From the NCBI GenBank assembly GCA_934148995.1, contig CAKPDM010000004.1, positions 17,814 through 81,813 of the forward strand: a DNA stretch of 64,000 nt, written 5' to 3'. Below the pieces are notes generated by a model. That model ran no database searches. It saw only the letters and a list, made by a program, of their open reading frames with translations, and was not told the DNA's origin. This document shows positions 626 to 23,531 of the stretch, piece by piece (the stretch's first letter is position 1; each line of letters starts with the position of its first letter). The translations under genes were made by a program, and so were the position numbers. Origin of the DNA: an uncultured Bacilli bacterium (GTDB lineage: Bacteria; Bacillota_I; Bacilli_A; RF39; UBA660).

Positions 626-656
626 AAAAATGATAATAATAAGGGGCGTGAACTAG

Positions 657-2195: not shown

Positions 2196-2207
2196 GAAGG
2201 AACGAAT

Positions 2208-4004: not shown

Positions 4005-4018
4005 ATGAGAGGTAAACT

Positions 4019-4798: not shown

Positions 4799-7601
4799 AG
4801 TAGTGTTGGCAGTTACTGCTATTCTTCTTGTTTGTGTTATAGCAAATCCCTTAAGGACAAAAGCTGAAGACGGTGTTAACTGTCCAAGTAGAGAACAATT
4901 TTTGGAGGATAACTTTAGTGTTGTTAATACACTTAGTGATGGAACTAAAGTAGCATATACTCAAAATGGTAATACAATAACTTTATCTGAAAAGGCTGCG
5001 AATATGCCAGAAGTAAAGGTATATGTAAATGGTCGGTTAGTTACTACTGATGAACATGGTAACATAACAATTGACTTAACCGCAGAAGAAGCAGCTTCTG
5101 GTACCAGTACTACAACCTTAATTGTTTCTTTTTCAAGAGTAGTTAAGGAAGGAGAAAAACCATGTACTAATGAAATTAACTATAGTTTCAATACAATTAA
5201 AGAAGCTCCTGACGAACCAGATGATGATGAGACTAAAGAGATAGAAAGAGAACTTGGTACTTTGCCTAATGAATCATCACCCATTGATGATTTAGAAGAT
5301 GAAAGTTTTACTAAAGTCAGTGATCCTACAAAAAGCACTAGTTTAAGTTGTGAATATGGTAAAAATGATGGTAAAACAATTAAAAAGTATACGCACAAAG
5401 GTGTTGTTTCTGATACTGGTGATTGTAAAACTACTTGCCGTGAAGATGTAGTAGTAACATTAGATCCACCAGTTATTACCCAATCAGGAATGTGCTTTAG
5501 TTACGTTGCTGATATCAAAACAAAGACAGTTTGTTCTGCAAAATTTACTGGAGTAAAACCGACAAAAATAAAAGGTTGTATTGCTCCTACTAACTGTTCA
5601 AGTGGTACACATGAAGGTGGACCAAGTTCATCATTTGATACTTGTATAGATTCTTGTGATGGAGGAGAATATACTCAAAGTTGTATTAATAAGTGCTATA
5701 ATCAAGTTTATGGTAAATCAACTACAACAAAAAAAGTTAGCGCTACATCAAAAAAAGAATCAAGTGTTAAGTATCTTAATAGCTTGAAGGAAGATAATGC
5801 TATTCCTACACCAATGGCTAATAAATTAAAAACTGTTAAAGTCACCCCTGATAAGGAAGTAACTTGTTACACAGATGAATATTTTAAAAGTACAAGAAAT
5901 ATGAGTGCTGATGAGTTAAAGGCATTAGCTCAAAAAGTTTATGAATCTAAGAAATATTTACCTGGTGGTTATTATGGAACTGGTACAGAAAGTACTTGGA
6001 CTCAAAGCGCTGGCCATTTCTATTATAATACTAGTAAAGGAACATGGTCATGGAAAAAGAATGGTGGATGTTCAAGTGCGATAAACTATTATTATTTTAG
6101 TACAGTAGATGAAACATATAACACTATTAAAATGCTTAATGGCTCAATTAAGTCAACTTCACCTACTTATTCAGCACTAGGATATTATAGACAATATGAA
6201 TCATTTGACGGTTCTTTGAAAAGAGCAAGATATTTAAAATCTGATGGATCTATTGCTTTTGCAAGTGAATGCTCAGATACTTGTACTATTACTACTAACT
6301 GTTCTGAAAAAGTTAAAAACTATACTGATGATAAGAAGTACATTGTTACTAGTGCTCAAGGTAATATGATTTATAAGGCAGAACTTAAGGCATATAAGAA
6401 GGCCAAACAAGCATGCATTAAGACTGCTAATTCATGTAAAACAATAAATAGTAGTTATGTTATTAAAACAGATGAAACTAGTAAGAACACTGGTAATAAT
6501 TTGGGTCATGAGTATAATTCTTCTCAGAATATTAATCAAGCTTCTTCATCTTCAAATAAATCTACTAAATCTGGAAATTTCCCAAGTATGATCATCAATA
6601 CTAATGGATTATGTATAACTGGCGAATGTGAGAATGTAAATCAGGAATACTGTAGTAGTCTTAAACCAGAATCAGCTGAATATGAAGCATATTGTAAAGA
6701 TAAGCAATCTTGTAAGTCGGCTGGAATAGCTGCTTGTAAGAATGGAGATACTTGTTATGATTATCATACGACGATTTCATTCCCTAAAAATTATATCAAC
6801 GTTAAGACTGGTCAAACAAAAGTTGAAATATCTAAAGATAAATTACCTTATTATGTGGCAGTAGGGAATGCATATTGTACAAGTTTAACTACTAAAGATG
6901 TTAATATAAATTGGTATAATTATAAATTAGATGATACTAATACAGTTAGTAAACCTACAAAGATTAATAATTATAATATTACTGGTAAAATAAATAGTTA
7001 TGGTGTGTTTGGTTGGAATTTTGATTTCTCATGTTTCTTTGCAATTAAAAATCCATGTGTACAGGGTACTAAAAATTGTCCACCTGAAGAACCGGACAAT
7101 CCTGACACTCCTGATAATCCTGGCAATCCTGACAATCCTGACACTCCTGATAATCCATTAACTTCGAAAGTTAAAGTTCGTTCTGTAAATCTATCTAATC
7201 TATTCCCTAATAGAGCAGCAAGATTTAACTGGTCTGCAAATGCAACGAATAAAAATAATGTTAATTATAAAGTTGATCCAATAACACTTAGAAAAAATAT
7301 AGAAGCAACTGGAGATGCCGTTTATGACTCAGCTAATGAAAATAAATATTTAGATTATCATATTAAATTAACAAAATCAGCAATAACTACAATCAGAAAC
7401 TACAACAGTGGAAAAACTTATAATGATACAAGTGATGGAACAGGACTTAATAGACTATCTGGTCAAGGTACATGGGGGGTTACAGTTTATCGAAGTAAAC
7501 TTTTAGATCAACTAGGAACGTCAGTTATTACTAAACGTGGACTTATCGGATGTAACAACCAAACAAGTTCTACAACTTGTAATACAGAAGGAGGTAATTA
7601 G
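4785..7601 (+). CDS. Large secreted Cys-rich protein (about 938 aa) with a PDNP repeat; candidate adhesin or filament-associated protein
   Basis: Signal peptide MKKRRVVLAVTAILLVCVIANPLRTKA/EDG. Dozens of Cys residues are spread along the mature protein. PEEPDNPDTPDNPGNPDNPDTPDNP linker. No C-terminal sorting signal or TM helix. ATG 4785 was preferred over GTG 4776 because of RBS spacing. Confidence 0.6.
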   Translation: MKKRRVVLAVTAILLVCVIANPLRTKAEDGVNCPSREQFLEDNFSVVNTLSDGTKVAYTQNGNTITLSEKAANMPEVKVYVNGRLVTTDEHGNITIDLTAEEAASGTSTTTLIVSFSRVVKEGEKPCTNEINYSFNTIKEAPDEPDDDETKEIERELGTLPNESSPIDDLEDESFTKVSDPTKSTSLSCEYGKNDGKTIKKYTHKGVVSDTGDCKTTCREDVVVTLDPPVITQSGMCFSYVADIKTKTVCSAKFTGVKPTKIKGCIAPTNCSSGTHEGGPSSSFDTCIDSCDGGEYTQSCINKCYNQVYGKSTTTKKVSATSKKESSVKYLNSLKEDNAIPTPMANKLKTVKVTPDKEVTCYTDEYFKSTRNMSADELKALAQKVYESKKYLPGGYYGTGTESTWTQSAGHFYYNTSKGTWSWKKNGGCSSAINYYYFSTVDETYNTIKMLNGSIKSTSPTYSALGYYRQYESFDGSLKRARYLKSDGSIAFASECSDTCTITTNCSEKVKNYTDDKKYIVTSAQGNMIYKAELKAYKKAKQACIKTANSCKTINSSYVIKTDETSKNTGNNLGHEYNSSQNINQASSSSNKSTKSGNFPSMIINTNGLCITGECENVNQEYCSSLKPESAEYEAYCKDKQSCKSAGIAACKNGDTCYDYHTTISFPKNYINVKTGQTKVEISKDKLPYYVAVGNAYCTSLTTKDVNINWYNYKLDDTNTVSKPTKINNYNITGKINSYGVFGWNFDFSCFFAIKNPCVQGTKNCPPEEPDNPDTPDNPGNPDNPDTPDNPLTSKVKVRSVNLSNLFPNRAARFNWSANATNKNNVNYKVDPITLRKNIEATGDAVYDSANENKYLDYHIKLTKSAITTIRNYNSGKTYNDTSDGTGLNRLSGQGTWGVTVYRSKLLDQLGTSVITKRGLIGCNNQTSSTTCNTEGGN
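7095..7156 (+). repeat. In-frame direct repeat encoding the (DNPDTPDNPGNP) Pro/Asp/Asn linker
   Basis: GACAATCCTGACACTCCTGATAATCC occurs at 7095-7120 and again at 7131-7156, a 36-nt period. Confidence 0.8.
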
Positions 7602-7603
7602 TA

Positions 7604-8095
7604 ATGAGTAAAGCAATGGCTATAGTTGGAATTATACTTCTTGCTATATTTACCTTTGGAGTTATTAATATCGCATCTAGTTATCAAACAGGTAATGAAC
7701 TTGATTATTACTTATTAAAAGAAACAACAGAAGCAGCTATGGTAGATGCAGTAGATATTGGGTATTATCGTTTAAGCGGTGGATTATATCGAGTAGATAA
7801 AGAAAAATTTGTTGAAAGTTTTGTGCGCCGCTTTGCCCAAAACGTTTCTAATGATAGAGAATATGATATCAAAATTTATGATATTAATGAAACCCCTCCA
7901 AAAGTAACAATAAAGATTGATTCATATACAGCAGAAGGTTTTAGTGGAGACAATCTAGAAATCTCTAATAGAATTAGTAGTATTATGGAAACAGATTATG
8001 AAACAAATGAATTGATTACTAAAATGGTAAATAGTGGGCAGTTAGATTATAGTAAAATAGATGAGACTTATACGAGAGCATTAGCTGCAAGTTAG
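7604..8095 (+). CDS. Small N-terminally anchored protein; candidate minor pilin/pseudopilin
   Basis: Single N-terminal hydrophobic helix (AMAIVGIILLAIFTFGVINI) followed by a soluble domain. Position is just upstream of the CpaB/TadA genes. No diagnostic motif. Confidence 0.3.
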   Translation: MSKAMAIVGIILLAIFTFGVINIASSYQTGNELDYYLLKETTEAAMVDAVDIGYYRLSGGLYRVDKEKFVESFVRRFAQNVSNDREYDIKIYDINETPPKVTIKIDSYTAEGFSGDNLEISNRISSIMETDYETNELITKMVNSGQLDYSKIDETYTRALAAS

Positions 8096-8116
8096 AATAG
8101 AAAGGAAGATGTAGAA

Positions 8117-8938
8117 ATGAACAATATTAGTGTAGGAATCAAAAAATTTCTCGCCAACAAGAATACTGTTACAGTTGTTGGTGTAATACTAGCAATAATA
8201 GTTTTATATGTAGGATATAATATGCGTGTTAAAAATGCTATTAATCCTGTTAGTGTACCATATGCTTTAAAAACAATTAATCCAGGTACACAAATTACTG
8301 ATGAAATGATAGGAACAATGGAAATACCTCCTGCTATGTTAAAGGGAGATGTAGTTACCAAAAAGTCCAGTGTAGTTGATATGTATTCTGCTATAGATAG
8401 TATAATTCCAGAAGGTAGTTTATTTTATGGTAGAAGTGTCGTAAGTAAAGAATCACTTCCAGGTAGTATTATCTTAGATTACCCTAAAAATTATGTTTTA
8501 TATAACTTAGAAGTAGATATGGCAAGTACTTATAGTAACTCTATTGTACCAGGTAATTATATTGATATTTACTTAAAGGTTATGAACCATGTTGATAATA
8601 ATCAAACAGTAACTGAAGAAAATGATAAGATTATGGTTGGTAAGTTATTACAAAATGTTAAAGTACTAGGAGTATATGATAGCAATGGACAAAGTGTTTT
8701 TGCTAATAGTGAAGAGAACAGAACTCCAGCACAAATCATTTTTGCGGTACCAGAAGAGTATCATATCTTATTACGTAAAGCTTCTTACTTAAGAGCATAC
8801 GATTCTGAAATTATTCCAGTACCAACTAATGAAAGTCTAGAGAAAAATCCAGGTGAAGTTAAGCTTTCAAATGAAGACTTGAAGAACTTTATTAATAAGG
8901 TAACTGCAATGACAGAAGCAGATTTAGCAACACAATAA
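8117..8938 (+). CDS. CpaB/RcpC-like Flp pilus assembly protein (SAF domain)
   Basis: N-terminal TM helix, then a SAF-like segment (VPYALKTINPGTQITDEMI). Size and position immediately upstream of the TadA-like ATPase fit the family. Confidence 0.55.
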   Translation: MNNISVGIKKFLANKNTVTVVGVILAIIVLYVGYNMRVKNAINPVSVPYALKTINPGTQITDEMIGTMEIPPAMLKGDVVTKKSSVVDMYSAIDSIIPEGSLFYGRSVVSKESLPGSIILDYPKNYVLYNLEVDMASTYSNSIVPGNYIDIYLKVMNHVDNNQTVTEENDKIMVGKLLQNVKVLGVYDSNGQSVFANSEENRTPAQIIFAVPEEYHILLRKASYLRAYDSEIIPVPTNESLEKNPGEVKLSNEDLKNFINKVTAMTEADLATQ

Positions 8939-8959
8939 TATAGGAAAGAGGAAATAAAA

Positions 8960-10315
8960 ATGAATGGATCTATTTTTGATAAATTAGACTTTGGAGTTTT
9001 AAAACCATTATTAGACGATGATGATATAACAGATATCTCTTATTCTAATCATGGTCAAGTATGGATTCGTTCTTTAACATATGGTTCTAAGAGAGTAGAA
9101 GTAGAAGGACTTAATGATGCTTTTATGGAAAAACTTGCCTTTCAGTGTTCTAATGTAATGGGAACAACATTCAATAATGCAAAACCATTCTTAGACGCTG
9201 AAAGCGCAGAACTTCGTTTAAACTTTGTACATGAATCTATTGCTACTAATGGTATTGCTGCTGTTATTCGTAAAACACCAGCTAAGATTAGACTTTCTAA
9301 AGAAAAGCTATTAAAAGAGGATTATTTCACTGCTAATATTCACGATTTATTGATTAAATGTGTTGAAGGACATTGTAACATAATGGTTAGTGGTGAAACT
9401 GGTTCTGGTAAAACTGAGTTTGTTAAGTATTTGGCAAGTCATACAAAGGAAAACGAAAAGATTATTACAATTGAAGATACACTTGAACTTCATTTGGATA
9501 AAATATTTCCACATAGAGATATAGTAGCAATGAAAACTAACAATATTGCTAGTTATACAGATGTATTAGTTACTTGTATGCGTCAGAATCCAAAATGGAT
9601 TTTATTATCAGAGGTTCGTAGTGCTGAAGCAGTTACTGCTGTTCGAAACTCAATATCATCTGGACATAACATTTTATCAACAATACATGCTGATAAAGCA
9701 AGTGCTATTCCGTATCGTTTGTATTCATTACTAGAAACAGATATTGATGTTGATCAGTTCTTAAATACTATCTATCGTTATGTTCAATTGGGTGTTCATA
9801 TTAAAGCTTATTATAGTAAAGAATATGGAAAATTCCATCGTGAAGTAGATGAAGTAGTAGAGTTTTATGTTGATGATGAAAATAAGCCGATCGCTCATAC
9901 TCTTTATCAAAAAACTTATGGTAAAGCGCCAGTTCAAAATATGCCTAGTGATCACTTAAGAGAGTATTTGGAAAATCAAAATATCAATATAGATAATTTA
10001 TTAACTTCTAAAGGTGATTCATTACAAGATTTAGAAAATGAACTAGAAAAGATAAATACGGTAGAAGAAGTTGCTAATTCTAGTAATCAAGCAGTTCAAA
10101 CAGCGCCAGCTAATATGCAAGTGCCACAAATGCCTGAACAAGTACAGCAATCTAGTAGTCCAGTTTTTCAAACACCACAGACAAGTCCACAATATGTAAA
10201 TACGCAAAATTATAATACTGGTGTTAGCACTACTAATACGGTAGTAATGCCAACTGAACCAATAAAAGATGAAATGTCTTTACCAAAGATTCCATTTCCA
10301 AATGAGGTGTTATAG
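8960..10315 (+). CDS. tadA: TadA/CpaF-family (T2SS-E/VirB11 superfamily) secretion ATPase with a Gln/Pro-rich C-terminal extension
   Basis: Walker A VSGETGSGKTEF. MRQNPKWILLSEVR (Walker B/Asp box). His box GHNILSTIHA. The last ~100 aa are low complexity (QVPQMPEQVQQSSSPVFQTPQTSPQ). Confidence 0.8.
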   Translation: MNGSIFDKLDFGVLKPLLDDDDITDISYSNHGQVWIRSLTYGSKRVEVEGLNDAFMEKLAFQCSNVMGTTFNNAKPFLDAESAELRLNFVHESIATNGIAAVIRKTPAKIRLSKEKLLKEDYFTANIHDLLIKCVEGHCNIMVSGETGSGKTEFVKYLASHTKENEKIITIEDTLELHLDKIFPHRDIVAMKTNNIASYTDVLVTCMRQNPKWILLSEVRSAEAVTAVRNSISSGHNILSTIHADKASAIPYRLYSLLETDIDVDQFLNTIYRYVQLGVHIKAYYSKEYGKFHREVDEVVEFYVDDENKPIAHTLYQKTYGKAPVQNMPSDHLREYLENQNINIDNLLTSKGDSLQDLENELEKINTVEEVANSSNQAVQTAPANMQVPQMPEQVQQSSSPVFQTPQTSPQYVNTQNYNTGVSTTNTVVMPTEPIKDEMSLPKIPFPNEVL

Positions 10316-10329
10316 GAAGGAGGAAGCGT

Positions 10330-11223
10330 ATGGTACTTTTCTTATTAATATTAATTGGAGTAGGGGTACTTCTTTATAGAAACTATCAAGGTCAAAATGT
10401 TTCAAAATATATAACTTCTCAAGTACAAGTTATATATGACAAATTTGCTCCATATTCATTTAAAGTAGTTAGAGAGAAAGCCAAGGAATTAGGCCAAGAA
10501 TTTACACCACGTCAATATGCAATGCAGGTGGCTATATTAGGTGGTTTTGCCGGGCTAGTAACTTATTTATATTTTTATAATATTTTAGCCAGTATTCTTT
10601 ATATAGTAGCAGCTGTTGCTTCGGTACCTTATCTTGCTTATTTAAGATGTAAAAGAGTTTATAGTGAGTTCGTATTTGAACAAATTCAAGTTTATACAAC
10701 AAACGTTATTATGGAATTTGCTACCACTCAATCTTTTGTTAAATCTTTAGAGGGAGTAAGAGATTCAGGTATATTGGAAGACCCTGTTCTATCAGATGTT
10801 AATACCATGATCGAGATGGCTTATGAAAACGGTTCTATCGATGAAGCTATTAACTATATGAACGAAAAATATCCTTATTATATAGTAAAAAATATGCATC
10901 AATTATTCTTACAAATTACTAAAGAAGGTGCAAGAGATACTGGTGAAAGTTTGGAAAACATGCAGTTAGATATCGATACTTTAGTTGAAAGTGTTTATAG
11001 AGATAGAATGGATAGATCAAACTTTCATAAGAAATTTTTACAATATGGTGTTATTCTTTACTTGTTGGTTATGCTTGTTCAATATATGCTTGGTAGAGAA
11101 AATTATTTAGCATTAATTGATAAAAGGTATGTTAGGGTAATACTACATGGTATAATTCTTTTCAATGCCTATTTCCTTCTTAAAGGTGAAAAATATTATA
11201 ATGAGAATGTGGGGGCTGAGTAG
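10330..11223 (+). CDS. TadB-like platform protein (GspF/T2SS-F topology)
   Basis: N-terminal TM helix, a TM pair, a ~130-aa cytoplasmic helical domain and a C-terminal TM pair. Lies directly after the TadA-like ATPase. Confidence 0.55.
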   Translation: MVLFLLILIGVGVLLYRNYQGQNVSKYITSQVQVIYDKFAPYSFKVVREKAKELGQEFTPRQYAMQVAILGGFAGLVTYLYFYNILASILYIVAAVASVPYLAYLRCKRVYSEFVFEQIQVYTTNVIMEFATTQSFVKSLEGVRDSGILEDPVLSDVNTMIEMAYENGSIDEAINYMNEKYPYYIVKNMHQLFLQITKEGARDTGESLENMQLDIDTLVESVYRDRMDRSNFHKKFLQYGVILYLLVMLVQYMLGRENYLALIDKRYVRVILHGIILFNAYFLLKGEKYYNENVGAE

Positions 11224-11225
11224 AT

Positions 11226-12005
11226 ATGGAAGTAATTATTGTAGCAGTTATTATAATTGGTGTTCTACTTTACAATCACACAATTGATAAAGATAAATTT
11301 ATCAAAGATAATGCTAAATATTTTAATCTTTTAAGAGAAGATGATTATAACTTTTTAGTAGCTGCAAAATATGGTGACAAAGCTGATAGTGATGTATTAT
11401 TTCAAAAAAGAATTAATCTTGGTGTTTTAACAATTTTTTTTGTTATGTTTATACAGCTTAATTCATTAAGTCTTTTAAATATATTGTTAGCGGTAATAAT
11501 TGGTTTTTTAGCTTTTAAGTATCCTTATATGACACTTAAAAATTATTATAAAAAACATTTGCATGATATTGATGTAATGTTGCCATACTATTTAAAGGGA
11601 CTAGAAATTTTAATTCAACATTATACAGTTCCAGTTGCTATTGGTAAAAGTATTCCTGATGCTCCAGATATATTTAAACCAGGTCTTACTGATATGATAG
11701 AAAAAATTAATGCAGGTGATTCATCAATTCAACCATATATGGATTTTGCTAACGAATATCCAGTAAGAGATTCAATGCGAATGATGCGTTTACTTTATCG
11801 TTTAGGTATTGGTGGGCAAGAGAAGAAACAAGAAAGATTATTAATGTTTTCAAAAACGGTATCAAATTTACAAGCCAAGGCACGTGAGACTAAATATAAA
11901 GAACGTCTTGATCATATGGGAAATCAAACAATGATCATGTTAGTTGTTACTGGTGTTAGTGTTATGGTGGTAATATTAATTTCTATGATGTCTATGGTTA
12001 TGTAA
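11226..12005 (+). CDS. TadC-like platform protein (GspF/T2SS-F topology)
   Basis: Same topology as the preceding gene and tandem with it. Confidence 0.5.
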   Translation: MEVIIVAVIIIGVLLYNHTIDKDKFIKDNAKYFNLLREDDYNFLVAAKYGDKADSDVLFQKRINLGVLTIFFVMFIQLNSLSLLNILLAVIIGFLAFKYPYMTLKNYYKKHLHDIDVMLPYYLKGLEILIQHYTVPVAIGKSIPDAPDIFKPGLTDMIEKINAGDSSIQPYMDFANEYPVRDSMRMMRLLYRLGIGGQEKKQERLLMFSKTVSNLQAKARETKYKERLDHMGNQTMIMLVVTGVSVMVVILISMMSMVM

Positions 12006-12022
12006 AGAATCAAGAAAATTAG

Positions 12023-12050
12023 TTACAAATAAATAAATATTTGCTATAAT
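12023..12050 (+). promoter_or_regulatory. Strong sigma-A-type promoter in front of the small pilin gene
   Basis: TTACAA (12023-12028), 16-nt spacer, extended -10 TGcTATAAT (12042-12050). Confidence 0.55.
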
Positions 12051-12081
12051 GTTTATATGATAGGAAAGGAGAATGATATAA

Positions 12082-12237
12082 ATGAAAGAGGCAACAGGAG
12101 AGTTAAACATGACAGTAGTTACAATAGTTTTGATAGGAGTTATAACAGCTTTCTTTACAGCTTTTTGGCCAACTATCAGAACTAAGATTCAAACTACTTG
12201 GAATAAAACAAATAATACCCCTCAAAATTTACGTTAA
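12082..12237 (+). CDS. Flp-like (type IVc) pilin candidate, 51 aa; absent from the supplied ORF track
   Basis: RBS AGGAAAGGAG sits 10 nt upstream of the ATG. Translation is MKEATGELNMTVVTIVLIGVITAFFTAFWPTIRTKIQTTWNKTNNTPQNLR: a short charged leader ending in Gly, a ~20-aa hydrophobic helix and a short polar tail. It lies between the TadC-like and TadE-like genes. Confidence 0.55.
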   Translation: MKEATGELNMTVVTIVLIGVITAFFTAFWPTIRTKIQTTWNKTNNTPQNLR

Positions 12238-12251
12238 AGAGGTGAAGTACA

Positions 12252-12749
12252 ATGCGTGAAGCGATTGGTGGAGTATTTACATTACAAATTATCTTAGTGT
12301 TTGTAATACTGATAAATGGGTATATGGCATATTCTGTCAATTATACTCGCGCCTTTCGAGTTAAAAATAGTATAATAAATATTATCGAAGAACGAGAAGG
12401 TTTTTCGGAAGGATCAAAGGCTGCAGAGGAAATTAGTTCCTTAGTAAAAACGGCTGGTTATGGTCTTTCTTCAGTTCAACAACAAGCAGTAAGAAATATG
12501 AATCATCAAAATGGTTGGTATTGTAGCGGAGCAGATGGCTATTGTGTAAAGTGTATTGATAATACTGGTAATAATGCAATTAACGTTGACGATGCATCTT
12601 ATCGCGGAGTTTATTATACTGTTAAGACTTATGTAAATATGGATATTCCTATTCTTAATAGAATATTTACTGGTTTACCAGACTTCTTATCAGTAAGAGG
12701 AGATACTAAAACAGTATATGCTAAGAATGGATGTCAAGCTATGAATTAG
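12252..12749 (+). CDS. TadE-like pseudopilin candidate (Cys-rich extracytoplasmic domain)
   Basis: The N-terminus MREAIGGVFTLQIILVFVILINGY parallels the leader of the small pilin (M-[KR]-E-A-x-G). One N-terminal helix. 5 Cys residues in the soluble part. Confidence 0.45.
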   Translation: MREAIGGVFTLQIILVFVILINGYMAYSVNYTRAFRVKNSIINIIEEREGFSEGSKAAEEISSLVKTAGYGLSSVQQQAVRNMNHQNGWYCSGADGYCVKCIDNTGNNAINVDDASYRGVYYTVKTYVNMDIPILNRIFTGLPDFLSVRGDTKTVYAKNGCQAMN

Positions 12750-12764
12750 AAAGGAGGGAACGAC

Positions 12765-13742
12765 ATGTATGTAATAGTTGCAAATGAAGCTAAAGATATG
12801 TTATCCCGCCTTGATATTGATGTAATGAAGAGTGTTGAGGGAGTTCATACAGCAGAAGAGATTGTCTCTATGTTTAAGAACTTCTTTTATGCTAGAATGA
12901 TTCTTGATATTACAGCTATTCAGGATTATGATAATATCACTAATATTCAAAAGATTTCTATTGGTTTAGATGCAGAGAAGATAATTCTTGTTTTACCAAA
13001 TAACGAAATTTCAACATCTAGTAGCTATTTATCAAAAATTATATCAATGGGTATTTATAACTTTACTACTAATTTAGATGGTATTAAGTATTGCTTAGAA
13101 CATCCAAATACTTATAAGGATGTAGCACATATTCAACAGCTTAATACTTTATCTAGTACAATTAATGAGAAAGTTATGAGTGGTAACCAAATTATTGGTA
13201 TCAGGAATGTTACTGATCATGCTGGTTCAACAACACTGATTTATATGTTAAAGAAAGAGTTAGAGCAAACTTATGGAATGAGTGTCTTAGCTCTTGAAAT
13301 AAACAAACATGATTTTCTTTACTTCAATGATAAAAATATGATTTCAACGACAGATTCTAATTTAATGACAGAAATAGTTAAACATAAAGATGCTTCTGTT
13401 ATATTGATTGATTTAAATGATTCTGATAATGATGGCGTATGTAGTGACGTGCTATATCTATTAGAGCCATCTAGTATTCGTCTTAATAAATTAATGCGAA
13501 GAAATAGAAAAATATTTGAAGAATTGCGAGGAAAGAAGATAGTTTTAAATCAAAGTTTATTAACTAATAAAGATGTAATGGACTTTGAATATGAAGGAAG
13601 AACTAAAGTCTTTTATAATCTTCCCCCTTTGAACGATAGAGAGAAAAATCCAGTTCTTACCGATTTTTTAGCAAAATTAGGACTTTTAAGTAAAAATGAA
13701 ACTAAAGATGATGGTAAAATTTTTGGATTATTCAAACGTTAA
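12765..13742 (+). CDS. TadZ/CpaE-like protein (receiver-like N-domain plus ParA/MinD-like fold with a degenerate Walker A)
   Basis: The N-terminal ~110 aa have a CheY-like alternation. IIGIRNVTDHAGSTTLIYMLKKEL occupies the P-loop position but lacks the Lys. ILIDLND sits where a Walker B would be. The position fits TadZ. Confidence 0.35.
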   Translation: MYVIVANEAKDMLSRLDIDVMKSVEGVHTAEEIVSMFKNFFYARMILDITAIQDYDNITNIQKISIGLDAEKIILVLPNNEISTSSSYLSKIISMGIYNFTTNLDGIKYCLEHPNTYKDVAHIQQLNTLSSTINEKVMSGNQIIGIRNVTDHAGSTTLIYMLKKELEQTYGMSVLALEINKHDFLYFNDKNMISTTDSNLMTEIVKHKDASVILIDLNDSDNDGVCSDVLYLLEPSSIRLNKLMRRNRKIFEELRGKKIVLNQSLLTNKDVMDFEYEGRTKVFYNLPPLNDREKNPVLTDFLAKLGLLSKNETKDDGKIFGLFKR

Positions 13743-13745
13743 TAA

Positions 13746-13774
13746 TTGACAAATAATATGATTTTTTATATCAT
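13746..13774 (+). promoter_or_regulatory. Sigma-A-type promoter at the start of the T4SS half
   Basis: TTGACA (13746-13751), 17-nt spacer, TATCAT (13769-13774), followed by RBS GAAGGAG. Confidence 0.55.
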
Positions 13775-13798
13775 AGTAGGTGAGAAGGAGAAATTGGT

Positions 13799-14155
13799 AT
13801 GAATTTAGGTTTACAAATATTAGCTGATGTTGGTGAGCCAACTGAAACTTGTAAAGGTTTATTATTCTTAGTAAGAATTGTTCGTAAAGGTATATTTCCT
13901 ATTTTACAAATTGGTATTCCAATTATCTTAATTGTTTTAGGTACCTTAGATTTAGGAAAGGCAGTTATTGCATCAGATGATAAACAAGTTAAGGAAGCTC
14001 AAGGTAAATTAATTAAACGTTGTATTTATGCTGTTGCTGTGTTCTTTATCGTTACGCTTGTTAATGTTATTTTATCTATGGTGGCTACAACTGCTGGAGA
14101 TGAAGTAACGGGTATGACTGATTGGCGTGACTGTTGGAATGCTGCCGGTAATTAA
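13799..14155 (+). CDS. T4SS pilin-like (VirB2/TrbC-like, Firmicutes 'T4SS_pilin' type) small membrane protein
   Basis: Two hydrophobic helices flank the conserved loop LDLGKAVIASDDKQVKEAQGKLIKR. This is remembered as the hallmark of pilin-like conjugal transfer proteins in Firmicutes and Mollicutes. Confidence 0.55.
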   Translation: MNLGLQILADVGEPTETCKGLLFLVRIVRKGIFPILQIGIPIILIVLGTLDLGKAVIASDDKQVKEAQGKLIKRCIYAVAVFFIVTLVNVILSMVATTAGDEVTGMTDWRDCWNAAGN

Positions 14156-14259
14156 TATTTGGGAAATAGTAAATATAGAAATTGCTATTTTCTTTTTTTT
14201 TTGGTACAATTATTTTGATTAGCTTGTTTTTGAGAACATGCTTTCTTGGAGGAACCCTT

Positions 14260-15465
14260 ATGAGAAAAAAGAATGCTATTTATTTCGTTATTATTAGTTT
14301 AATATTTTGTGTGTTTTTGACTCCTAGTGTAGTAAATGCGGATGGCTCTTGTACATACAAATTAGATGTAGATTCTTTGGGATTGTCTGCAGCGTTGAAA
14401 TCTGCATCTTTTACCATAACTGTTAAAGATAATGGTAAAGTTACTAAGGGAAAATTAAAGTTTGTTAATATTAATGATACAAAGGAAGAAGCCGAATTAA
14501 CGTCAGGAGTTAATTTAGATGGCCAACATACTTTAATGTATAAAAAAATGTTTGATGACAATGGGGATTTTTATAAAGCTTATAAAAAGAGAAATAACTG
14601 TCCATCAATGCAGTTTATAAATCAAGATAGTTCCGGTATCTCAGCAATTAAGATGGTGTTAAATGGACAAGAGACTACTATCGATAATAGTAATTCGACC
14701 AGCACTCCAGAAAGCACTGATCCAAATAGAGCTCAAAAGAAAATTTATTGTAATAATATAGAGAAAGATATGCGTGATGTAAAATCTGGTAAAGTCTATT
14801 TTACTACTTATGAGGTAAATGGGGTAAAATTGTTTAGCGTAGTTTTAAAATCTAAAGGAAAAAAAGTTGGAGATGCTACTGATATTAATTATAATGCTAC
14901 TGCTAATATTCTATATGGTGGAACGAGCTTTAGCTTTCTTGTAAACTCTGCAGATTATGATACTTATTGGAGTACAAAATGTTCTGACACATCTACAAAT
15001 ATATATATGAAGGCGGATGGAGGTTCTGCGAGTACCACTAGAGTATTCCAAACTACGCTTCCATCGACAACTGAAAATGGTTCATACAATGCGGCGGAGG
15101 CAAAATATGATACTGGTAAATCAACAGCTCCGACATATAAAGATAAGTCTTCATTGAATGATTTAAACAAGAAATATGATCAATGCAGTCAAATAATAGA
15201 TATGTCTGAGGGAAAATTTGGATGGCTTCTTCAAAAAATATTAAATTATATAAAAATAGCTGGCCCAATACTAGTTGTACTTTTAAGTGCTCTTGATTTT
15301 ATTAAAGCGGTTGCTTCTAGCGATGAGAATGTGTTTAAAAAAGCTCAATCTAGACTTGTTATTAGGTTGGTTGCGGCACTTGCTTTATTTTTGGTTCCTA
15401 CACTTGTACAATTATTACTTGGTTTAATTAATGGTATAACTGATTCGTCGTGCGGACTTAAATAG
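14260..15465 (+). CDS. Secreted ~330-aa domain fused to a C-terminal T4SS pilin-like two-helix module
   Basis: RBS GGAGGA and ATG at 14260, with signal peptide ...SVVNA/DGSC. The C-terminus GPILVVLLSALDFIKAVASSDENVFKKAQSRLVIRLVAALALFLVPTLV aligns by eye with the 118-aa protein upstream. Confidence 0.55.
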   Translation: MRKKNAIYFVIISLIFCVFLTPSVVNADGSCTYKLDVDSLGLSAALKSASFTITVKDNGKVTKGKLKFVNINDTKEEAELTSGVNLDGQHTLMYKKMFDDNGDFYKAYKKRNNCPSMQFINQDSSGISAIKMVLNGQETTIDNSNSTSTPESTDPNRAQKKIYCNNIEKDMRDVKSGKVYFTTYEVNGVKLFSVVLKSKGKKVGDATDINYNATANILYGGTSFSFLVNSADYDTYWSTKCSDTSTNIYMKADGGSASTTRVFQTTLPSTTENGSYNAAEAKYDTGKSTAPTYKDKSSLNDLNKKYDQCSQIIDMSEGKFGWLLQKILNYIKIAGPILVVLLSALDFIKAVASSDENVFKKAQSRLVIRLVAALALFLVPTLVQLLLGLINGITDSSCGLK

Positions 15466-15481: not shown

Positions 15482-17554
15482 ATGAGTTCTAGTAGTACTG
15501 TGCCAGGTTTTTTTAAAGATGGTTTCCGAATTTTTTGTACAGTTTTTGATGGCATAGGGGTATCATTACTTGGTGGCATATATAAGGTATTTTATTTAGT
15601 TGCAAACGCTACTATTATAAAAGGTGACGTTTTAAAAGTTTTTTATTCCAGAATTCAATTGATTATAGGAATACTAATGATTTTCAAACTTGCCATGTCA
15701 ATTTTGAATATTATAATTAATCCCGATCTCGTTAAAGACCAAAAACAGGGGGCAGGAAAAATAGTGACAAGAATTGTTGTTGCTTTGTTTATGCTCACAC
15801 TTGTTATTCCGATTAATATTCCTGATGCAGAAGCTGGTAGTTTAAATGGCTATATTAATGATCATGGTATTTTGTTTGGCTTTTTATATAAAGCACAAGA
15901 TTCTATTTTATCAGAAAATATTATTGCTAAGCTTGTTCTTGGTATTCAATCTGATACCGAAGATAATTCTATGGATGTTAATAGTCTTAGTGATATTGGA
16001 AATACTATGGCTTCTACAGTTTTAAAGGTTTTTATAAGAATCAATGTAAAAGATGATACTCAACCAGCGTGTGATTATTCGTCTGATGATGATCCTTGTT
16101 CAAATACTCTTTGTCCAGCTGAGGTTAATGCATCACATTATGCCGAAGAAAATGTTGATCCTGTAATTATTTTAGATCATATAAATGAGTCTTGCAAACC
16201 TAATGGTGAAAGTGGAGAAAGATATGCCTTTGTTTATACTTTTCTTTTAAGTGGAATTGTTATGATAATCATGGCTCTTATTATCCTTGGGTTTACAATA
16301 GATATAGCCGTTCGTGCCATTAAATTAGCAGTTTTAAGGCTTATTGCGCCAGTACCAATTATTAGTTACATTAATCCTCCAAAACAAGGGGGCGGTGCTT
16401 TTGATAATTGGACAAAATCGTTAATTTCTACTTATGTTGATTTATTTGTGCGCTTAGCATTGGTTTATTTTGGCTTATTCCTAATTAGAACAGTAATAGA
16501 TACTGGTTTTGACATCTTTGGTGATCAAGCAGCACAGGGCTCGCTTTTCTACAAGGGAATAGCATTAATCTTTGTTATTTTAGGAATACTTGTGTTTATG
16601 AAACAAGCTCCAGCATTTATTAAAGATGTTTTAGGTATAAAAGGCAAACCAATGGGAAATGTCGGACTTTCTAGCGTACTTGCTGGTTCTGCTGCTTTCA
16701 TTGGTGGAGCAGGTTTATCTGGTGTAAGTACCGCAGCTTTCAGTACATTTAGAGCTGCAAGTGAAGCTGCTTCTCAAGGAAAACCTATGCCAGGTGGTTG
16801 GGGAGCAGGTCGTGATTTTGCTGCTCAACTCAGAACTGGTGATCCTAAGGCTAAGGGTGGTATCTTAAATAATTTGCAAGATAGTTTAGCTAGAAGGGCG
16901 AATATTAGAATGGCCAGAAATTATGGTGTAACAGCAGCTGGACTTGATATAGCCAAAGATAAATCATTAGCTGCAGATGCAGAGGCTGCAAAAACGAAGG
17001 ACTTTTATGAAAGATTTACTCAAGGCCATATGGATGATTATGAACGTGCTAAATATGTTAGTGCTAATGGTTTAACATTGACTGGTACTAGAGAAGAGCA
17101 AGATGAGATCATTAGAAATGATATGTATACTAAGATGAATAATGCAGCTGCTGAAGCATTTAAGGCTAAGAAGAAATGGGATGAAGGTAAAGAATATGCT
17201 AAAACTCATAGAATCAGTCCAAGTTTTGAGGAAGAGCATAGACCAAGTAGATTTGGTGAACGCCGTATGACTGATGATAAGAGAAAAGGAAGACCAGACA
17301 TGTATAATGCTAGGGGTAGAGGTGCAACTGCTCATCAAACTATGGCTGATAGAATTTATGGTAGTCATGATAAGTGGGATGATCCTACAACACCAAGAAC
17401 AGAAAACAGATGGAATCCTGGTAGTGCTAAAGATGTTGATAACGACACATATAATGATAGTCCATTTGGTCCACCTGGTGCAGGATCTGCAACTGGACGT
17501 GGGGGCCCATTTGGTCGTGGCGACCCAGGCCCTGGCGGCGGCCCTAGACCTTAA
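15482..17554 (+). CDS. VirB6/TrbL-like polytopic channel protein with a long charged, Gly/Pro-rich C-terminal tail
   Basis: Multiple TM helices occur through residue ~420. The position before the VirB3/VirB4 genes is typical of Gram-positive T4SS. The tail ends GRGGPFGRGDPGPGGGPRP. Confidence 0.55.
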   Translation: MSSSSTVPGFFKDGFRIFCTVFDGIGVSLLGGIYKVFYLVANATIIKGDVLKVFYSRIQLIIGILMIFKLAMSILNIIINPDLVKDQKQGAGKIVTRIVVALFMLTLVIPINIPDAEAGSLNGYINDHGILFGFLYKAQDSILSENIIAKLVLGIQSDTEDNSMDVNSLSDIGNTMASTVLKVFIRINVKDDTQPACDYSSDDDPCSNTLCPAEVNASHYAEENVDPVIILDHINESCKPNGESGERYAFVYTFLLSGIVMIIMALIILGFTIDIAVRAIKLAVLRLIAPVPIISYINPPKQGGGAFDNWTKSLISTYVDLFVRLALVYFGLFLIRTVIDTGFDIFGDQAAQGSLFYKGIALIFVILGILVFMKQAPAFIKDVLGIKGKPMGNVGLSSVLAGSAAFIGGAGLSGVSTAAFSTFRAASEAASQGKPMPGGWGAGRDFAAQLRTGDPKAKGGILNNLQDSLARRANIRMARNYGVTAAGLDIAKDKSLAADAEAAKTKDFYERFTQGHMDDYERAKYVSANGLTLTGTREEQDEIIRNDMYTKMNNAAAEAFKAKKKWDEGKEYAKTHRISPSFEEEHRPSRFGERRMTDDKRKGRPDMYNARGRGATAHQTMADRIYGSHDKWDDPTTPRTENRWNPGSAKDVDNDTYNDSPFGPPGAGSATGRGGPFGRGDPGPGGGPRP

Positions 17555-17575
17555 TCTAAGAAGGAGTGTGACTAG

Positions 17576-17890
17576 TTGATGAATTATTTAATACCGGCTA
17601 ATACTAAAAAAGGAGAGTTAATCTTAGGAATATTTCGTTTTTATGACTTAGTATTATTTGGAATTGGAATACTATTGACATTGATTCTGTTGGTTACTAT
17701 GCCAATGAATGATACTATGCAGGTGGTTCTTGTTATGCTACCTGCTGGTATCTGCACATTCTTAATAATTCCAGTACCAAATTATCATAATATATTAACT
17801 ATAATTTTAGAGTGTTATGCCTTTATAACAAATAGACAAAGATATATATGGAAGGGTTGGTGTGTATCAGATGGCAAAGAAAATAGGTAG
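17576..17890 (+). CDS. PrgI/VirB3-like small two-TM protein
   Basis: 104 aa with two adjacent TM helices, immediately upstream of and overlapping the VirB4 N-terminal ORF. Confidence 0.5.
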   Translation: MMNYLIPANTKKGELILGIFRFYDLVLFGIGILLTLILLVTMPMNDTMQVVLVMLPAGICTFLIIPVPNYHNILTIILECYAFITNRQRYIWKGWCVSDGKENR

Positions 17891-18419
17891 TGCTTATACA
17901 GAGGATTGGTTACCAGTTGAATCTATTCAAAATGGTATGATTGTCTGTAGTGATAAAAATAAAGTAACAGGAGTTAAAATTGCTCCGAGAAATATCTTTA
18001 TCTTGGATGCGCAAGCACAAGATAATGTCTTAATCAGTTTGAAAAACTTTTATAATATGATTGATTTTGAATTTTGGTTGGTAGTAGCAGATCGCCCTGT
18101 TGATATATCTGTTTATATGTCACAGCTACAACTTTTATATAATGACACGCCATCTCCTGCTATTCGTAAGATAATAATGCAAGATATCGAAAAGGGTAAT
18201 ACCTTTATGAATAATAGTATTGTTGATACTGAGTATTATATTTTATTTAAAGATAAAAATCCTGATAATCTTCAAAAGAGAATTCGTCTTTTGATAAATG
18301 GTCTTGCTAGTTGTGGACTTAATGCTTCACAGGTTAGTAATGATGATTTAAGATTAATTCTTGATAATTTCTTGAATGGGGGAAATACTACTGAGTTTGG
18401 GACGGTGATGCCATTATGA
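17862..18419 (+). CDS. virB4: VirB4-family ATPase, N-terminal domain encoded as a separate 185-aa ORF
   Basis: EDWLPVESIQNGMIVCSDKNKVTGVKIAPRNIFILDAQAQDNVLISLKNFYNMIDFEFWLVV resembles the N-terminus of Gram-positive VirB4 proteins (Tn916 Orf16/TcpF type). The stop codon overlaps the next ATG (ATGA). Confidence 0.6.
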   Translation: MYQMAKKIGSAYTEDWLPVESIQNGMIVCSDKNKVTGVKIAPRNIFILDAQAQDNVLISLKNFYNMIDFEFWLVVADRPVDISVYMSQLQLLYNDTPSPAIRKIIMQDIEKGNTFMNNSIVDTEYYILFKDKNPDNLQKRIRLLINGLASCGLNASQVSNDDLRLILDNFLNGGNTTEFGTVMPL

Positions 18420-20206
18420 GTATAAGTTTAAAAAGTCAAATAGCACCTAAGGGATTACACTTCAATCCAAGTGATTTCTTTATAAGTGATAAGTATGCTA
18501 CTATTTTATCAGTTGTATCTTATCCTAAATATATAGCACCTGGTTATTTATCAACTTTGACATCTATGAGTGGAATTAAAATTGTTATTAAACATATTCC
18601 GGTTCCATTTAGTATGATGTCTAAGATGATTAATAGACAGATTGCGGATTTAAGAGAAAAGTATCGTCAAGAAAAAGATCAAACTGCTAAGGAAAAGATT
18701 AGACAAGATGCTGAGAGTTTAGAGTATTTCGTTTCCATGCTTGCTTCTAGTCAATCTAAGATTTTTGATTTCCAAATGCATATTATGATTACAGCTGATA
18801 CAAAAGAAGAACTAGAACTTAAGAAAGTTAATGTTAAGAACTATCTGGATGCGATGGAGTTACGTGCTGTTTCCCTTCGTTTTGAACAAGAAAAGGTTTT
18901 AAAAAGTATTTTACCGATCTTTCCGTCACAAGATATTGAACAAAGGATTGGTACACCAATTCCTTCTCCAACAATAGCTGCTATGTATCCATTTATCTTC
19001 GATAGTATTAAAGATCCAGGACTATCTGTTTTATTAGGAGTAGATTTCTCTGGTGGTGTAATTTTATTTAATCAATTCTTATATCAAATTAGAAAAGAAA
19101 ATAATAGAAATAATGCTAATATGATAATACTTGGTACTTCTGGAAGTGGTAAGAGTACTGCTGCTAAGTTAGTATTAAGAAGCCATATTAGAAATGGTTG
19201 TCAGATAGTAGCAATTGACCCTGAAAACGAACTTGAAGAAATTACAAGAACTTTCGGTGGAGATACAGTTGATATTGGTAAAGGTGGTCAGTTTGGATTA
19301 ATTAATCCCCTTGAAGTTATTATTGATGCTGATGAAGAGGAAATTAAACAAGGACTTGGTTATACTGTTTTGACAAGAACTTTACAGTCATTGAAAGCTT
19401 TTATGAGATATTATGATCCATCTATTACAGAAGATGTTTTAACAATGTTTAGTGAAGTAGTACAAGATACTTACAAACGATTTGGTATTGATTTTGATAC
19501 AGATTTTTCACACTTTACTAGTAATGATTATCCAACATTTACTGATGTTTATGCTACTATTAAAGGGCGTATTTTATCAATGCCTGAACAAACTCATGAA
19601 AAGGATATTTTACAAAGATTACAATTAAAAGTTAAGCCATTAGTTACAGAACTTAAATTCTACTTTGATGGAAAAACAACTATTCGTAAAGATAGTGACT
19701 TTATGGTATTTAATATTAAAGAGTTGATGAACTCAGAAGGAAATACTAAGAATGCGTTGTTCTTCAATATTTTACGTTTTGCTTGGGGATTGTGTCTTGA
19801 TACTAGTGTAAATACAATATTGATGGTTGATGAAGCTCACGTATTGTTAGGTGCTAATAACGAATTAGGAGCTGATTTTTTAGCACAAGTACAACGTCGT
19901 GCTAGAAAATATAACACTGGTACAATAATTATTACTCAACAACCAAGTGATTTCTCAGATCCTGCAGTTATTACGCAAGGTAAGGCAATCTTTGATAACT
20001 CATCATATTACCTTGTTATGGGATTAAAGAAACAAGCAGTTGATGATTTATCATTGTTAATTGATTTGAATGATAATGAACGAGATAGTATTAAAAGGTA
20101 CTCTCAAGGTGAAGCATTGTTTGTCTGTGGAAATAGACGTATGCGTATAAATGTTGTTGTTACTAAAGAAGAATTAGAATCATTTGGTGATGGCGGAGGA
20201 TTTTAG
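18416..20206 (+). CDS. virB4: VirB4-family ATPase, middle and C-terminal ATPase portion (596 aa)
   Basis: Walker A ILGTSGSGKST. Walker B ILMVDEAHVLL. IIITQQPSD motif. The size of the two ORFs combined (781 aa) matches full-length VirB4. Confidence 0.8.
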   Translation: MSISLKSQIAPKGLHFNPSDFFISDKYATILSVVSYPKYIAPGYLSTLTSMSGIKIVIKHIPVPFSMMSKMINRQIADLREKYRQEKDQTAKEKIRQDAESLEYFVSMLASSQSKIFDFQMHIMITADTKEELELKKVNVKNYLDAMELRAVSLRFEQEKVLKSILPIFPSQDIEQRIGTPIPSPTIAAMYPFIFDSIKDPGLSVLLGVDFSGGVILFNQFLYQIRKENNRNNANMIILGTSGSGKSTAAKLVLRSHIRNGCQIVAIDPENELEEITRTFGGDTVDIGKGGQFGLINPLEVIIDADEEEIKQGLGYTVLTRTLQSLKAFMRYYDPSITEDVLTMFSEVVQDTYKRFGIDFDTDFSHFTSNDYPTFTDVYATIKGRILSMPEQTHEKDILQRLQLKVKPLVTELKFYFDGKTTIRKDSDFMVFNIKELMNSEGNTKNALFFNILRFAWGLCLDTSVNTILMVDEAHVLLGANNELGADFLAQVQRRARKYNTGTIIITQQPSDFSDPAVITQGKAIFDNSSYYLVMGLKKQAVDDLSLLIDLNDNERDSIKRYSQGEALFVCGNRRMRINVVVTKEELESFGDGGGF

Positions 20207-20230
20207 AAGTAGTTAGGTGGTGAAGAAGAG

Positions 20231-22606: not shown

Positions 22607-22618
22607 GGGAGATAAAAC

Positions 22619-23404: not shown

Positions 23405-23432
23405 GTGATACTAATTTTCTTTCTTTAACTGA

Positions 23433-23461
23433 TTGTGAGACATTATTTTCTATGATATAAT
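23433..23461 (+). promoter_or_regulatory. Sigma-A-type promoter upstream of the coupling-protein gene
   Basis: TTGTGA (23433-23438), 17-nt spacer, extended -10 TGaTATAAT (23453-23461). Confidence 0.45.
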
Positions 23462-23531
23462 TTAAATAGTAATTGTGTATTTTGCTTTTTTGATGTATAA
23501 TATGTTTCAAAAAAAGAAAGAGGGTTCTTAG

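Follow-up and report, generated by a model that had tools for sequence, protein, structure and literature searches.

The window analyzed here is a stretch of 64,000 nucleotides (GC content 28%) from contig CAKPDM010000004.1 of an uncultured Bacilli bacterium (assembly GCA_934148995.1). The feature of interest is a small gene that encodes a pilin-like protein of 51 amino acids (aa) and lies within a gene cluster for a type IV secretion system (T4SS). The gene occupies most of a 246-nt gap, which runs from the stop codon of an upstream 259-aa open reading frame (ORF) at 12005 to the start of the next long ORF at 12252. A preliminary description, based on the letters and a list of ORFs, had reported this gap, a promoter, a ribosome-binding site, and the 51-aa translation, and all of these were re-read exactly as described. 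The same description called the gene unannotated. The gene is indeed absent from the ORF track that was supplied, but public gene callers do predict it, always as a hypothetical protein. The features of the gap and of the gene are as follows.

12023-12028, forward strand: -35-like hexamer TTACAA (direct reading), separated by a 16-nt spacer from the extended -10 element
12042-12050, forward strand: extended -10 element TGcTATAAT (direct reading)
12063-12072, forward strand: ribosome-binding site AGGAAAGGAG, 9 nt before the ATG
12082-12237, forward strand: gene for the 51-aa pilin-like protein, translation MKEATGELNMTVVTIVLIGVITAFFTAFWPTIRTKIQTTWNKTNNTPQNLR
12082-12099, forward strand: leader MKEATG (codons 1-6)
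12103-12168, forward strand: hydrophobic helix, residues 8-29 (LNMTVVTIVLIGVITAFFTAFW)
Residues 30-51 of the 51-aa protein: polar tail

The ATG at 12082 directly follows an in-frame TAA, and the putative mature protein would have 45 aa if cut after G6. An Rfam scan of 11800-12500 gave no match. Within 12094-12111, codons 5-7 (ACA GGA GAG) form an AGGAG located 8 nt 5' of the in-frame ATG of Met10. An internal start at Met10 was considered and rejected, because this AGGAG is not conserved (ACT GGT GAA is found in many loci) whereas the peptide is.

The 51-codon ORF is a genuine gene under strong purifying selection. Relatives of 49-69 aa numbered 364 in a word-seeded search, every one of them unnamed or annotated as "hypothetical protein" and none with a Pfam domain. 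A HMMER profile search that used no seed words (search space of 1.84 billion representatives, clusters at 50% identity) returned 827 clusters at E <= 1e-3, of which 258 reached E <= 1e-10. With one genome per species scanned, the family is present in at least 505 species genomes. Nearly all hosts are uncultured Bacilli from the gut that carry the labels "Tenericutes", Mollicutes, or Erysipelotrichaceae; Candidatus Onthousia and Clostridium sp. CAG:451 and CAG:762 are among them. Selection was estimated from the proportions of synonymous (pS) and nonsynonymous (pN) differences among 90 sequences, namely the window and the fetched loci. For codons 1-11, pS was 0.63 (synonymous sites saturated), pN was 0.014, and pN/pS was 0.02; for codons 1-29, pN/pS was 0.27, and in both cases pN is biased downward by the choice of fetched loci through N-terminal peptide patterns. 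The same head invariance was seen in the best 150 matches of the unseeded HMMER search. Because synonymous sites are saturated while pN is low, the constraint acts on the peptide rather than on the DNA. Taken together, these results define a large family of small proteins without a name, with an unusually invariant head of 11 residues.

The upstream signals were evaluated by their conservation among homologous loci. A consensus promoter scan of the window gave 37 sites against 47.5 expected from shuffled sequences. As promoter-like sites are no commoner than in shuffles, one good-looking promoter alone proves nothing. TATAAT occurs 15-60 nt upstream of the start in 81 of 90 homologous loci, compared with 230 of 1377 control ORFs (17%) drawn from the same loci. 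The extended form TGnTATAAT is found upstream in 62 of the 90 loci and 83 of the control ORFs (6%), and a -35/-10 pair, defined as TTACAA or a TTGACA-like hexamer 16-18 nt from TATAAT, in 48 loci and 10 control ORFs. A GGAG motif lies 5-14 nt before the start in 87 of the 90 loci. In an alignment of five loci, the TG, T, A, T, A, A, and T columns of the extended -10 element are all invariant and TTACAA is kept in four, and the surrounding spacer diverges. By comparative evidence of this kind, the promoter of the small ORF is a conserved and dedicated element. This internal, extended -10 promoter of sigma-A type would provide additional transcription of the small gene. The genes that follow would also be driven from 12023-12050, given that only 14 nt separate the 51-aa ORF stop from the next gene and that no terminator-like sites were found in 7000-15000.

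Residue counts were obtained from 262 family members placed in register. The head has the consensus MK[EA]A[TS]GE[LV][NS][ML]T, in which K2, A4, E7, and T11 are each present in 262 of 262 members and G6 in 261; the remaining head positions are M1, E/A/D3, T/S5, L8, N/S9, and M/L10. Hydrophobic columns (about 22 residues) run to about residue 29 and are followed by an amphipathic stretch with a W-P-x-I-x-x-x-I-x-x-x-W pattern. The tail is hypervariable with no conserved columns, and total protein lengths range from 46 to 141 aa (median 57 aa). The first 40 residues are essentially free of Cys. In the tails, 203 members have no Cys, 40 have two, 12 have four, five have six, and only two have an odd number, and such even counts are the pattern expected of disulfides in an exported segment. 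Moreover, seven loci carry tandem paralog pairs in which both copies have the MKEATGELN-T head and the tails are divergent and rich in Cys. Major pilins show this same combination of an invariant N-terminus, a hydrophobic helix, a hypervariable exposed tail, tandem paralogs, and a promoter of their own. A real small gene, conserved at the same position of homologous loci, with a promoter of its own inside the cluster and the architecture of a short Gly-terminated leader, a single hydrophobic helix, and a polar tail is in line with the preliminary description.

The tandem pairs are found in loci L066, L067, L069, L070, L074, L075, and L085 (about 10001-10540), and the second copies have 6-8 Cys and a C-terminal C-x-[WY]-K-G. 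A sortase site in KEATG was also considered for the head and was rejected, because the fifth residue is variable (T/S/M/A/P), the motif lies at the N-terminus on the cytoplasmic side, and the product of the downstream gene carries I/F/V there.

The small gene belongs to a cluster in which the gene order is fixed in every locus with flanks of sufficient length (75-87 loci per gene). The order is DUF5411, CpaB/RcpC, ATPase, 297-aa gene, 259-aa gene, a 437-aa gene (in some loci), the small ORF, a gene for a 127-179-aa protein, a gene for an approximately 325-aa protein, and the T4SS genes. The 437-aa gene is seen in one sub-lineage (8605-9918 in loci L001-L003) and has no Pfam match; a separate -10 element in front of the small ORF is retained in that sub-lineage. 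The other features in and beside the cluster in the window are listed below.

7604-8095, forward strand: DUF5411 protein with an N-terminal transmembrane (TM) helix (Pfam DUF5411, E = 7e-47; syntenic in 75 loci)
8117-8938, forward strand: CpaB/RcpC-like protein (Pfam RcpC PF16976, 32.3 bits against a cut-off of 28.8, plus SAF)
8960-10315, forward strand: PilT/VirB11-class secretion ATPase, nearest to FlaI and CpaF (Pfam T2SSE, E = 2e-27)
10330-11223, forward strand: 297-aa polytopic membrane protein, candidate platform protein (syntenic in 81 loci)
11226-12005, forward strand: 259-aa membrane protein, candidate platform protein (syntenic in 82 loci)
12252-12749, forward strand: 165-aa protein with the leader MREAIGG, candidate minor pilin or, alternatively, VirB8-like fold
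12765-13742, forward strand: 325-aa conserved protein in the position of TadZ (syntenic in 86 loci)
13799-14155, forward strand: 118-aa T4SS_pilin/VirB2-like candidate (Pfam T4SS_pilin, E = 0.017, sub-threshold)
15482-25670, forward strand: T4SS core by Pfam matches, which includes the next four genes
15482-17554, forward strand: TrbL/VirB6-like protein (Pfam)
18416-20206, forward strand: VirB4-like protein (Pfam)
20231-22606, forward strand: SpoIID-domain cell-wall protein (Pfam)
23532-25670, forward strand: VirD4 coupling protein (Pfam)
125-544, reverse strand: lipoprotein thioredoxin with lipobox LTGC and active site CSHC (Pfam Thioredoxin, E = 5.5e-11)

Among the neighbors of the small gene, the FlaI/CpaF-like ATPase and the CpaB/RcpC protein are the only solid assignments. 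In comparisons with PDB entries, the ATPase is closest to archaeal FlaI (1.2e-21), followed by CpaF (5e-18) and VirB11 (5e-14), and its scores against the NCBIfam models of VirB11, TadA, and FlaI are each under the respective cut-off. Its C-terminal region of about 100 residues is of low complexity and rich in Q/P/N/T; this tail differs in length among loci, and the total length of the protein is 409-505 aa. The CpaB-like protein matches TIGR03177 (CpaB) at E = 4e-9, also under the cut-off. The 259-aa protein has 7094 relatives, none of those listed with a Pfam label. The 325-aa protein gave no Pfam, NCBIfam, or PDB-profile match, and no CpaE was found in 30 diverse members of its family.

The 165-aa protein shares the leader of the small one. 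Across 86 loci, the product of the next gene (127-179 aa) starts with M[RK][DE][AS][IFV][GS][GQ], which is followed by a hydrophobic helix, and 36 of the 86 leaders end in G-Q. Comparison of the two families by hhalign placed residues 1-29 in register (E 3e-4, probability 39%). Such sharing of a leader by neighboring genes would be expected if both products underwent the same processing or docking step. An AlphaFold2 (AF2) model of the 165-aa protein (pLDDT 74, pTM 0.65) has a helix of 46 residues (2-47) followed by a small alpha/beta domain, and the model thus has a general pilin shape.

For the 51-aa protein, some hallmarks of a pilin are present. Tad-type pilins have 44-68 aa (PMC6916266), a range that includes the 51-aa pre-protein, the putative 45-aa mature form, and the family median. 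The class III signal peptide (IPR012902) comprises a hydrophilic leader of at least six residues ending in Gly, about 21 hydrophobic residues, and Glu at +5 (PMC6916266); MKEATG corresponds to such a leader and residues 8-29 to the hydrophobic stretch. The top Pfam match of the family is archaeal Pilin_N (PF07790), found in 20 of 34 members with all scores sub-threshold (best E 0.0013). This match was lost in all five variants in which residues 2-11 alone were scrambled or replaced, and likewise in full shuffles and in the reversed sequence, whereas composition-driven matches (Brr6, DUF4083) survived the scrambling of residues 2-11. The loss upon scrambling of these residues alone indicates that the similarity sits at the junction of leader and helix. 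It remains weak, as shuffled controls reach comparable E-values with unrelated families, and it should be regarded as suggestive only.

Comparisons with characterized pilins reveal partial likeness to two further classes. Archaeal type IV pilins (PF07790) give the best, leader-dependent Pfam similarity, and the best solved relative of the ATPase is archaeal FlaI. Archaeal pilins are not known to require Glu5, and EppA substrates carry Gln at +1, a feature with a parallel in the 36 leaders of the downstream gene that end in G-Q. The family described here differs in that its scores are under the gathering threshold, its hosts are bacterial, and no archaeal-type peptidase was found nearby. Type IVa pilins (e.g., PilA/PilE), which have a class III signal peptide, resemble the family in their six-residue leader M-K-x-x-x-G followed by about 21 hydrophobic residues, in the same register as MKAQKG/FTLIE. 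However, the family has no Glu5, no match to the N_methyl motif, and no globular head domain. At the level of systems, the Tad apparatus is thought to derive from archaeal Epd-like pili (PMC6668835).

A possible distant counterpart of the module is found on plasmids. The nearest annotated relatives of the ATPase (32-36% identity) are encoded by pLS20-type plasmids of Bacillus and Paraclostridium. There, genes for a thioester adhesin and a TM protein (about 126 aa) accompany the ATPase gene ("VirB11"), together with genes for two proteins of some 268 and 243 aa, a second TM protein (about 120 aa), and one or two 47-aa single-TM mini-proteins; VirD4 comes next. In pLS20, genes 36 and 38-41 are listed as "Unknown", and gene 41 encodes a 47-aa single-TM protein (PMC8557374). 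The logic of genes 36-41 is the same as in the window: a TM protein, a VirB11/CpaF-like ATPase, a pair of membrane proteins (about 250-270 aa each), a further TM protein (about 120 aa), and one or more tiny single-TM proteins are encoded beside an adhesin and a T4SS. Profile comparisons by hhalign tentatively link the 165-aa family to gene-40-like proteins (76% probability, E 2e-5) and the small ORF to gene-41-like proteins (54% probability, E 1.3e-4, residues 1-41 in register). The 297-aa family is collinear with gene-38-like proteins over 201 columns (weak, E 0.022), as is the 259-aa family with gene-39-like proteins (weak, E 0.0067). The small gene has an equivalent place in the plasmid modules, but these differ in that the small gene and the 120-165-aa gene are in swapped order, that no CpaB is annotated, and that they belong to plasmid-borne conjugation systems possessing a relaxase. 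In the two plasmid loci (L090, 10235-10638; L091, 8781-9147), one or two single-TM mini-proteins of 47-65 aa are annotated as hypothetical, and those of the Paraclostridium plasmid are a near-identical tandem duplicate. In addition, operons with CpaF, a PilC-like protein, and DUF5411 were flagged in gut Clostridia as an uncharacterized secretion-related system (PMC9523054). These resemble the locus in combining a DUF5411 protein with a CpaF-type ATPase in gut Firmicutes; they differ in genera (Roseburia, Ruminococcus, and Eubacterium) and in that no small pilin or T4SS linkage was named.

The favored interpretation, with a probability of roughly 55%, is that the 51-aa protein polymerizes as the major subunit of a module that resembles type IV filament systems, is highly divergent from them, and is located next to a chromosomal Gram-positive T4SS. 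The evidence for this includes the reality of the gene, the conserved promoter and ribosome-binding site, the pilin-type conservation, the tandem paralogs, and the fixed synteny. Moreover, the ATPase is nearer to FlaI/CpaF than to VirB11, RcpC scores over its cut-off, the Pilin_N match depends on the leader, the 165-aa protein shares leader and TM helix in register, and a VirB2-like role is filled by other genes. The module would comprise the FlaI/CpaF-clade ATPase, CpaB/RcpC, the two polytopic membrane proteins, and the pilin-like proteins. The pre-protein would insert with its head MKEATGE in the cytoplasm and its variable tail outside, an orientation suggested by the even tail Cys counts and by the lipoprotein thioredoxin beside the cluster. 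The six-residue leader might then be cut off after Gly6 by a prepilin-type peptidase from another part of the genome, which would leave Glu at +1 in place of the usual Glu5; this step is at best an even bet. Alternatively, the head may stay on as a docking motif for the machinery. The ATPase and membrane proteins would pull subunits out of the membrane and pack the hydrophobic helices of these subunits together to form a thin filament or a short piston, with the 165-aa leader-sharing protein as a possible minor or priming subunit. More speculatively, such a filament may help the adjacent T4SS to cross the cell wall or to contact cells.

Several results weigh against a polymerizing subunit. The Flp_Fap family (PF04964) matched none of 34 members at E <= 1, and Pilin_N scored 17.2 bits on the window protein against a gathering cut-off of 25.2, with shuffled controls giving unrelated matches at E 0.005-0.009. 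The Glu5 of the class III signal peptide is missing (Thr is invariant at +5, and the only nearby acid is Glu at +1), and the net charge of the leader is about zero rather than positive. In the plasmid mini-proteins, the MKEATGE head is missing and residue 6 is Gly or Asp, which makes a universal peptidase site less likely. No credible A24 peptidase motif (GxGDxK / Gx[GA]DxK) was found in six frames of the window, and none within 10 kb on either side of the gene in about 90 loci. However, the genes of such peptidases often lie elsewhere, as in the Bifidobacterium breve Tad system, and MSH loci have none (PMC6916266, PMC6668835), so that its absence nearby does not refute processing. For the candidate platform proteins, T2SSF (PF00482) matched none of 59 diverse members of the 297- and 259-aa families (29 of them of the latter), searches of PDB sequences and profiles with both proteins gave no match, and hhalign of the two families for paralogy of the TadB/TadC type gave a probability of 2.7%. 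In comparison, the Tad platform consists of two paralogous proteins with one T2SSF domain each (PMC6668835). Finally, a Foldseek search with the 165-aa model gave no significant PDB match and no pilin, only weak matches to VirB8.

The main rival, which is less likely, takes the 51-aa protein as an unprocessed small integral-membrane subunit of an ATPase/T4SS complex, i.e., a fixed stator, assembly, or channel part, modelled on SpoIIIAC/AD with the SpoIIIAA ATPase or on pLS20 gene 41. It accounts for the lack of a significant pilin-family match, of a peptidase motif nearby, and of support for a platform identity of the neighboring membrane proteins. The hhalign link to the 47-aa protein of pLS20 type, whose head has no conserved Gly, points in the same direction, as do weak Spore_III_AB and Spore_III_AF matches on module proteins and the fact that pili are not reported in the pLS20 literature (PMC8557374). 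However, hypervariable tails with disulfide-type Cys pairs, divergent tandem paralogs, and a dedicated strong promoter would be unexpected for a fixed part, and neither the Gly-ended leader common to the next gene nor the leader-dependent Pilin_N signal fits it well.

It is much less probable that the small gene encodes a T4SS pilin of the VirB2/TrbC type, which would use the VirB11-like ATPase together with VirB4. The small gene does lie inside a T4SS cluster, and Gram-negative VirB11 and VirB4 drive pilus biogenesis (PMC12857230), but the protein has one TM helix instead of a two-helix hairpin and no match to PF04956 or PF18895 (VirB2/TrbC/T4SS_pilin). Furthermore, two other genes already carry T4SS_pilin-like domains, at 13799-14155 and at the C-terminus of the 427-aa protein encoded by 14182-15465. 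By BLASTP, the 118-aa protein matches residues 353-416 of the 427-aa protein (E = 2e-13). The cluster therefore has two VirB2-like domains, of which one is fused to a large N-terminal region that looks extracellular.

Membership in the Flp/Fap (Tad, Tfpc) pilins, with cleavage by a TadV peptidase, is largely refuted. In Caulobacter PilA, Aggregatibacter Flp1, and B. breve Flp, as in the family described here, a tiny one-helix subunit has a short Gly-ended leader. Other points of likeness are the size, the gene order after two membrane proteins, the adjoining CpaF-clade ATPase and CpaB/RcpC, the tandem paralogs, and a peptidase that can be encoded elsewhere. The preliminary description had named the gene Flp-like on the grounds of architecture and size and had placed it between TadC-like and TadE-like genes, with a stand-alone Tad adhesion locus assumed as the setting. 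Only part of this survives. The cluster does hold the CpaF/FlaI-type ATPase (T2SSE 2e-27) and CpaB/RcpC (over the Pfam cut-off), and the canonical G/xxxxEY motif is absent, as had been acknowledged: E7 directly follows G6, +5 is Thr in 262 of 262 members, and +6 is Val, Leu, or Ile. On the other hand, the Flp_Fap search was negative, Glu stands at +1 and Thr instead of Glu at +5, and the peptidase motif was found neither in the window nor near the homologs. Typical Flp leaders are also longer than 6 aa. The labels of the neighbors have no statistical support from hidden Markov model (HMM), profile, or fold comparisons. For the 165-aa gene, 30 diverse members gave no match to TadE (PF07811), so that its leader and its modelled long helix make it an analog of TadE/TadF minor pilins at most. 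For the 259-aa gene, an AF2 model (pLDDT 64.6) found nothing significant in Foldseek, the OutF/GspF cytoplasmic domain being a weak match (E 3.3, TMt 0.46). With no detectable T2SSF, TadE, CpaE/TadZ, or TadV signatures in the locus, and with a T4SS cluster in a Gram-positive chromosome as the setting, the 51-aa protein falls outside the canonical Flp pilins and should be kept out of that family. A search of PDB sequences with the small-ORF profile gave membrane-helix noise only (e.g., anoctamin).

Two further explanations have little credibility. The small size, the Gly-containing N-terminal motif, and the variable C-terminus might indicate a leader-bearing exported peptide (bacteriocin, pheromone, or exclusion factor) with no part in filament assembly. 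This is hardly probable, because a leader of just six residues precedes a TM helix of 22, neither a C39 peptidase nor an ABC exporter is encoded alongside, and the place in the operon of ATPase and membrane-protein genes is invariant in 75-87 loci. A double-glycine bacteriocin leader, in particular, was rejected, since 6-7 residues are too short and the C39 exporter is missing. A chance origin of the ORF in an AT-rich spacer, where promoter-like hexamers are frequent, is already refuted by the 827 clusters in at least 505 species, pN/pS of 0.02-0.27, synonymous saturation, and the retained ribosome-binding site.

A polymerizing subunit at this locus would bear on current views of Gram-positive T4SSs, which are said to "universally lack VirB11 homologs" (PMC12857230, a 2025 review) and are described as adhesin-dependent and without pilin genes (PMC12857230, PMC12102498, PMC8557374), with no conjugative pili formed by Gram-positive elements (PMC8557374). 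Here, a T4SS, a FlaI/CpaF-type ATPase, CpaB, and a conserved pilin-like mini-protein occur together in hundreds of uncultured gut species. A T4SS-linked filament, if real, would contradict the statements that Gram-positive T4SSs have neither VirB11-type ATPases nor pili. It would also account for genes 36-41 of the pLS20 family, add a pilin signature that present pilin finders miss, and offer the T4SS a route through the thick cell wall. In the broadest form, possible but doubtful, a new pilin class (six-residue leader, Glu at +1, no Glu5) would build a filament or piston integral to a widespread family of Gram-positive T4SSs, which would comprise the chromosomal, apparently relaxase-less clusters in no fewer than 505 species of gut Bacilli and, more remotely, the pLS20 family. 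Even on a conservative reading, the family of 827 clusters is a concrete target for annotation and experiments.

The surroundings of the cluster (600-27000 of the window; 1-10000 in loci L092 and L093) are those of a chromosome. Upstream of it in the same genome are genes for RecO, GlyRS, IF3, L35, L20, S2, EF-Ts, and BipA, and downstream are genes for a sigma factor and SpoVAD. The scanned ORFs included neither a relaxase nor an integrase, and megablast of 8000-14200 against plasmids and phages gave no match. With housekeeping genes on both flanks and neither relaxase nor integrase among the scanned ORFs, the cluster looks chromosomal. It may be a relaxase-less T4SS and is not an obvious integrative and conjugative element (ICE), a reading that was rejected on the same grounds. 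Relaxase-less chromosomal T4SSs of this kind are reminiscent of those reported for Patescibacteria.

The lipoprotein thioredoxin (125-544) at the edge of the cluster has weak TraF and PedC-like matches, and the same neighbor is found in loci L092-L094. It may act as an extracytoplasmic disulfide oxidoreductase for the many Cys-rich exported proteins of the cluster. A class-B-sortase-like gene (4019-4798) is located between the genes for a 598-aa Ig-like surface protein (2208-4004) and a 941-aa Cys-rich protein (4776-7601), both of which, by eye, lack a terminal sorting signal of the LPXTG type. The first gene of the cluster (657-2195) encodes a conserved protein of 509-512 aa with a multi-TM N-terminal region and a weak match to DUF4352.

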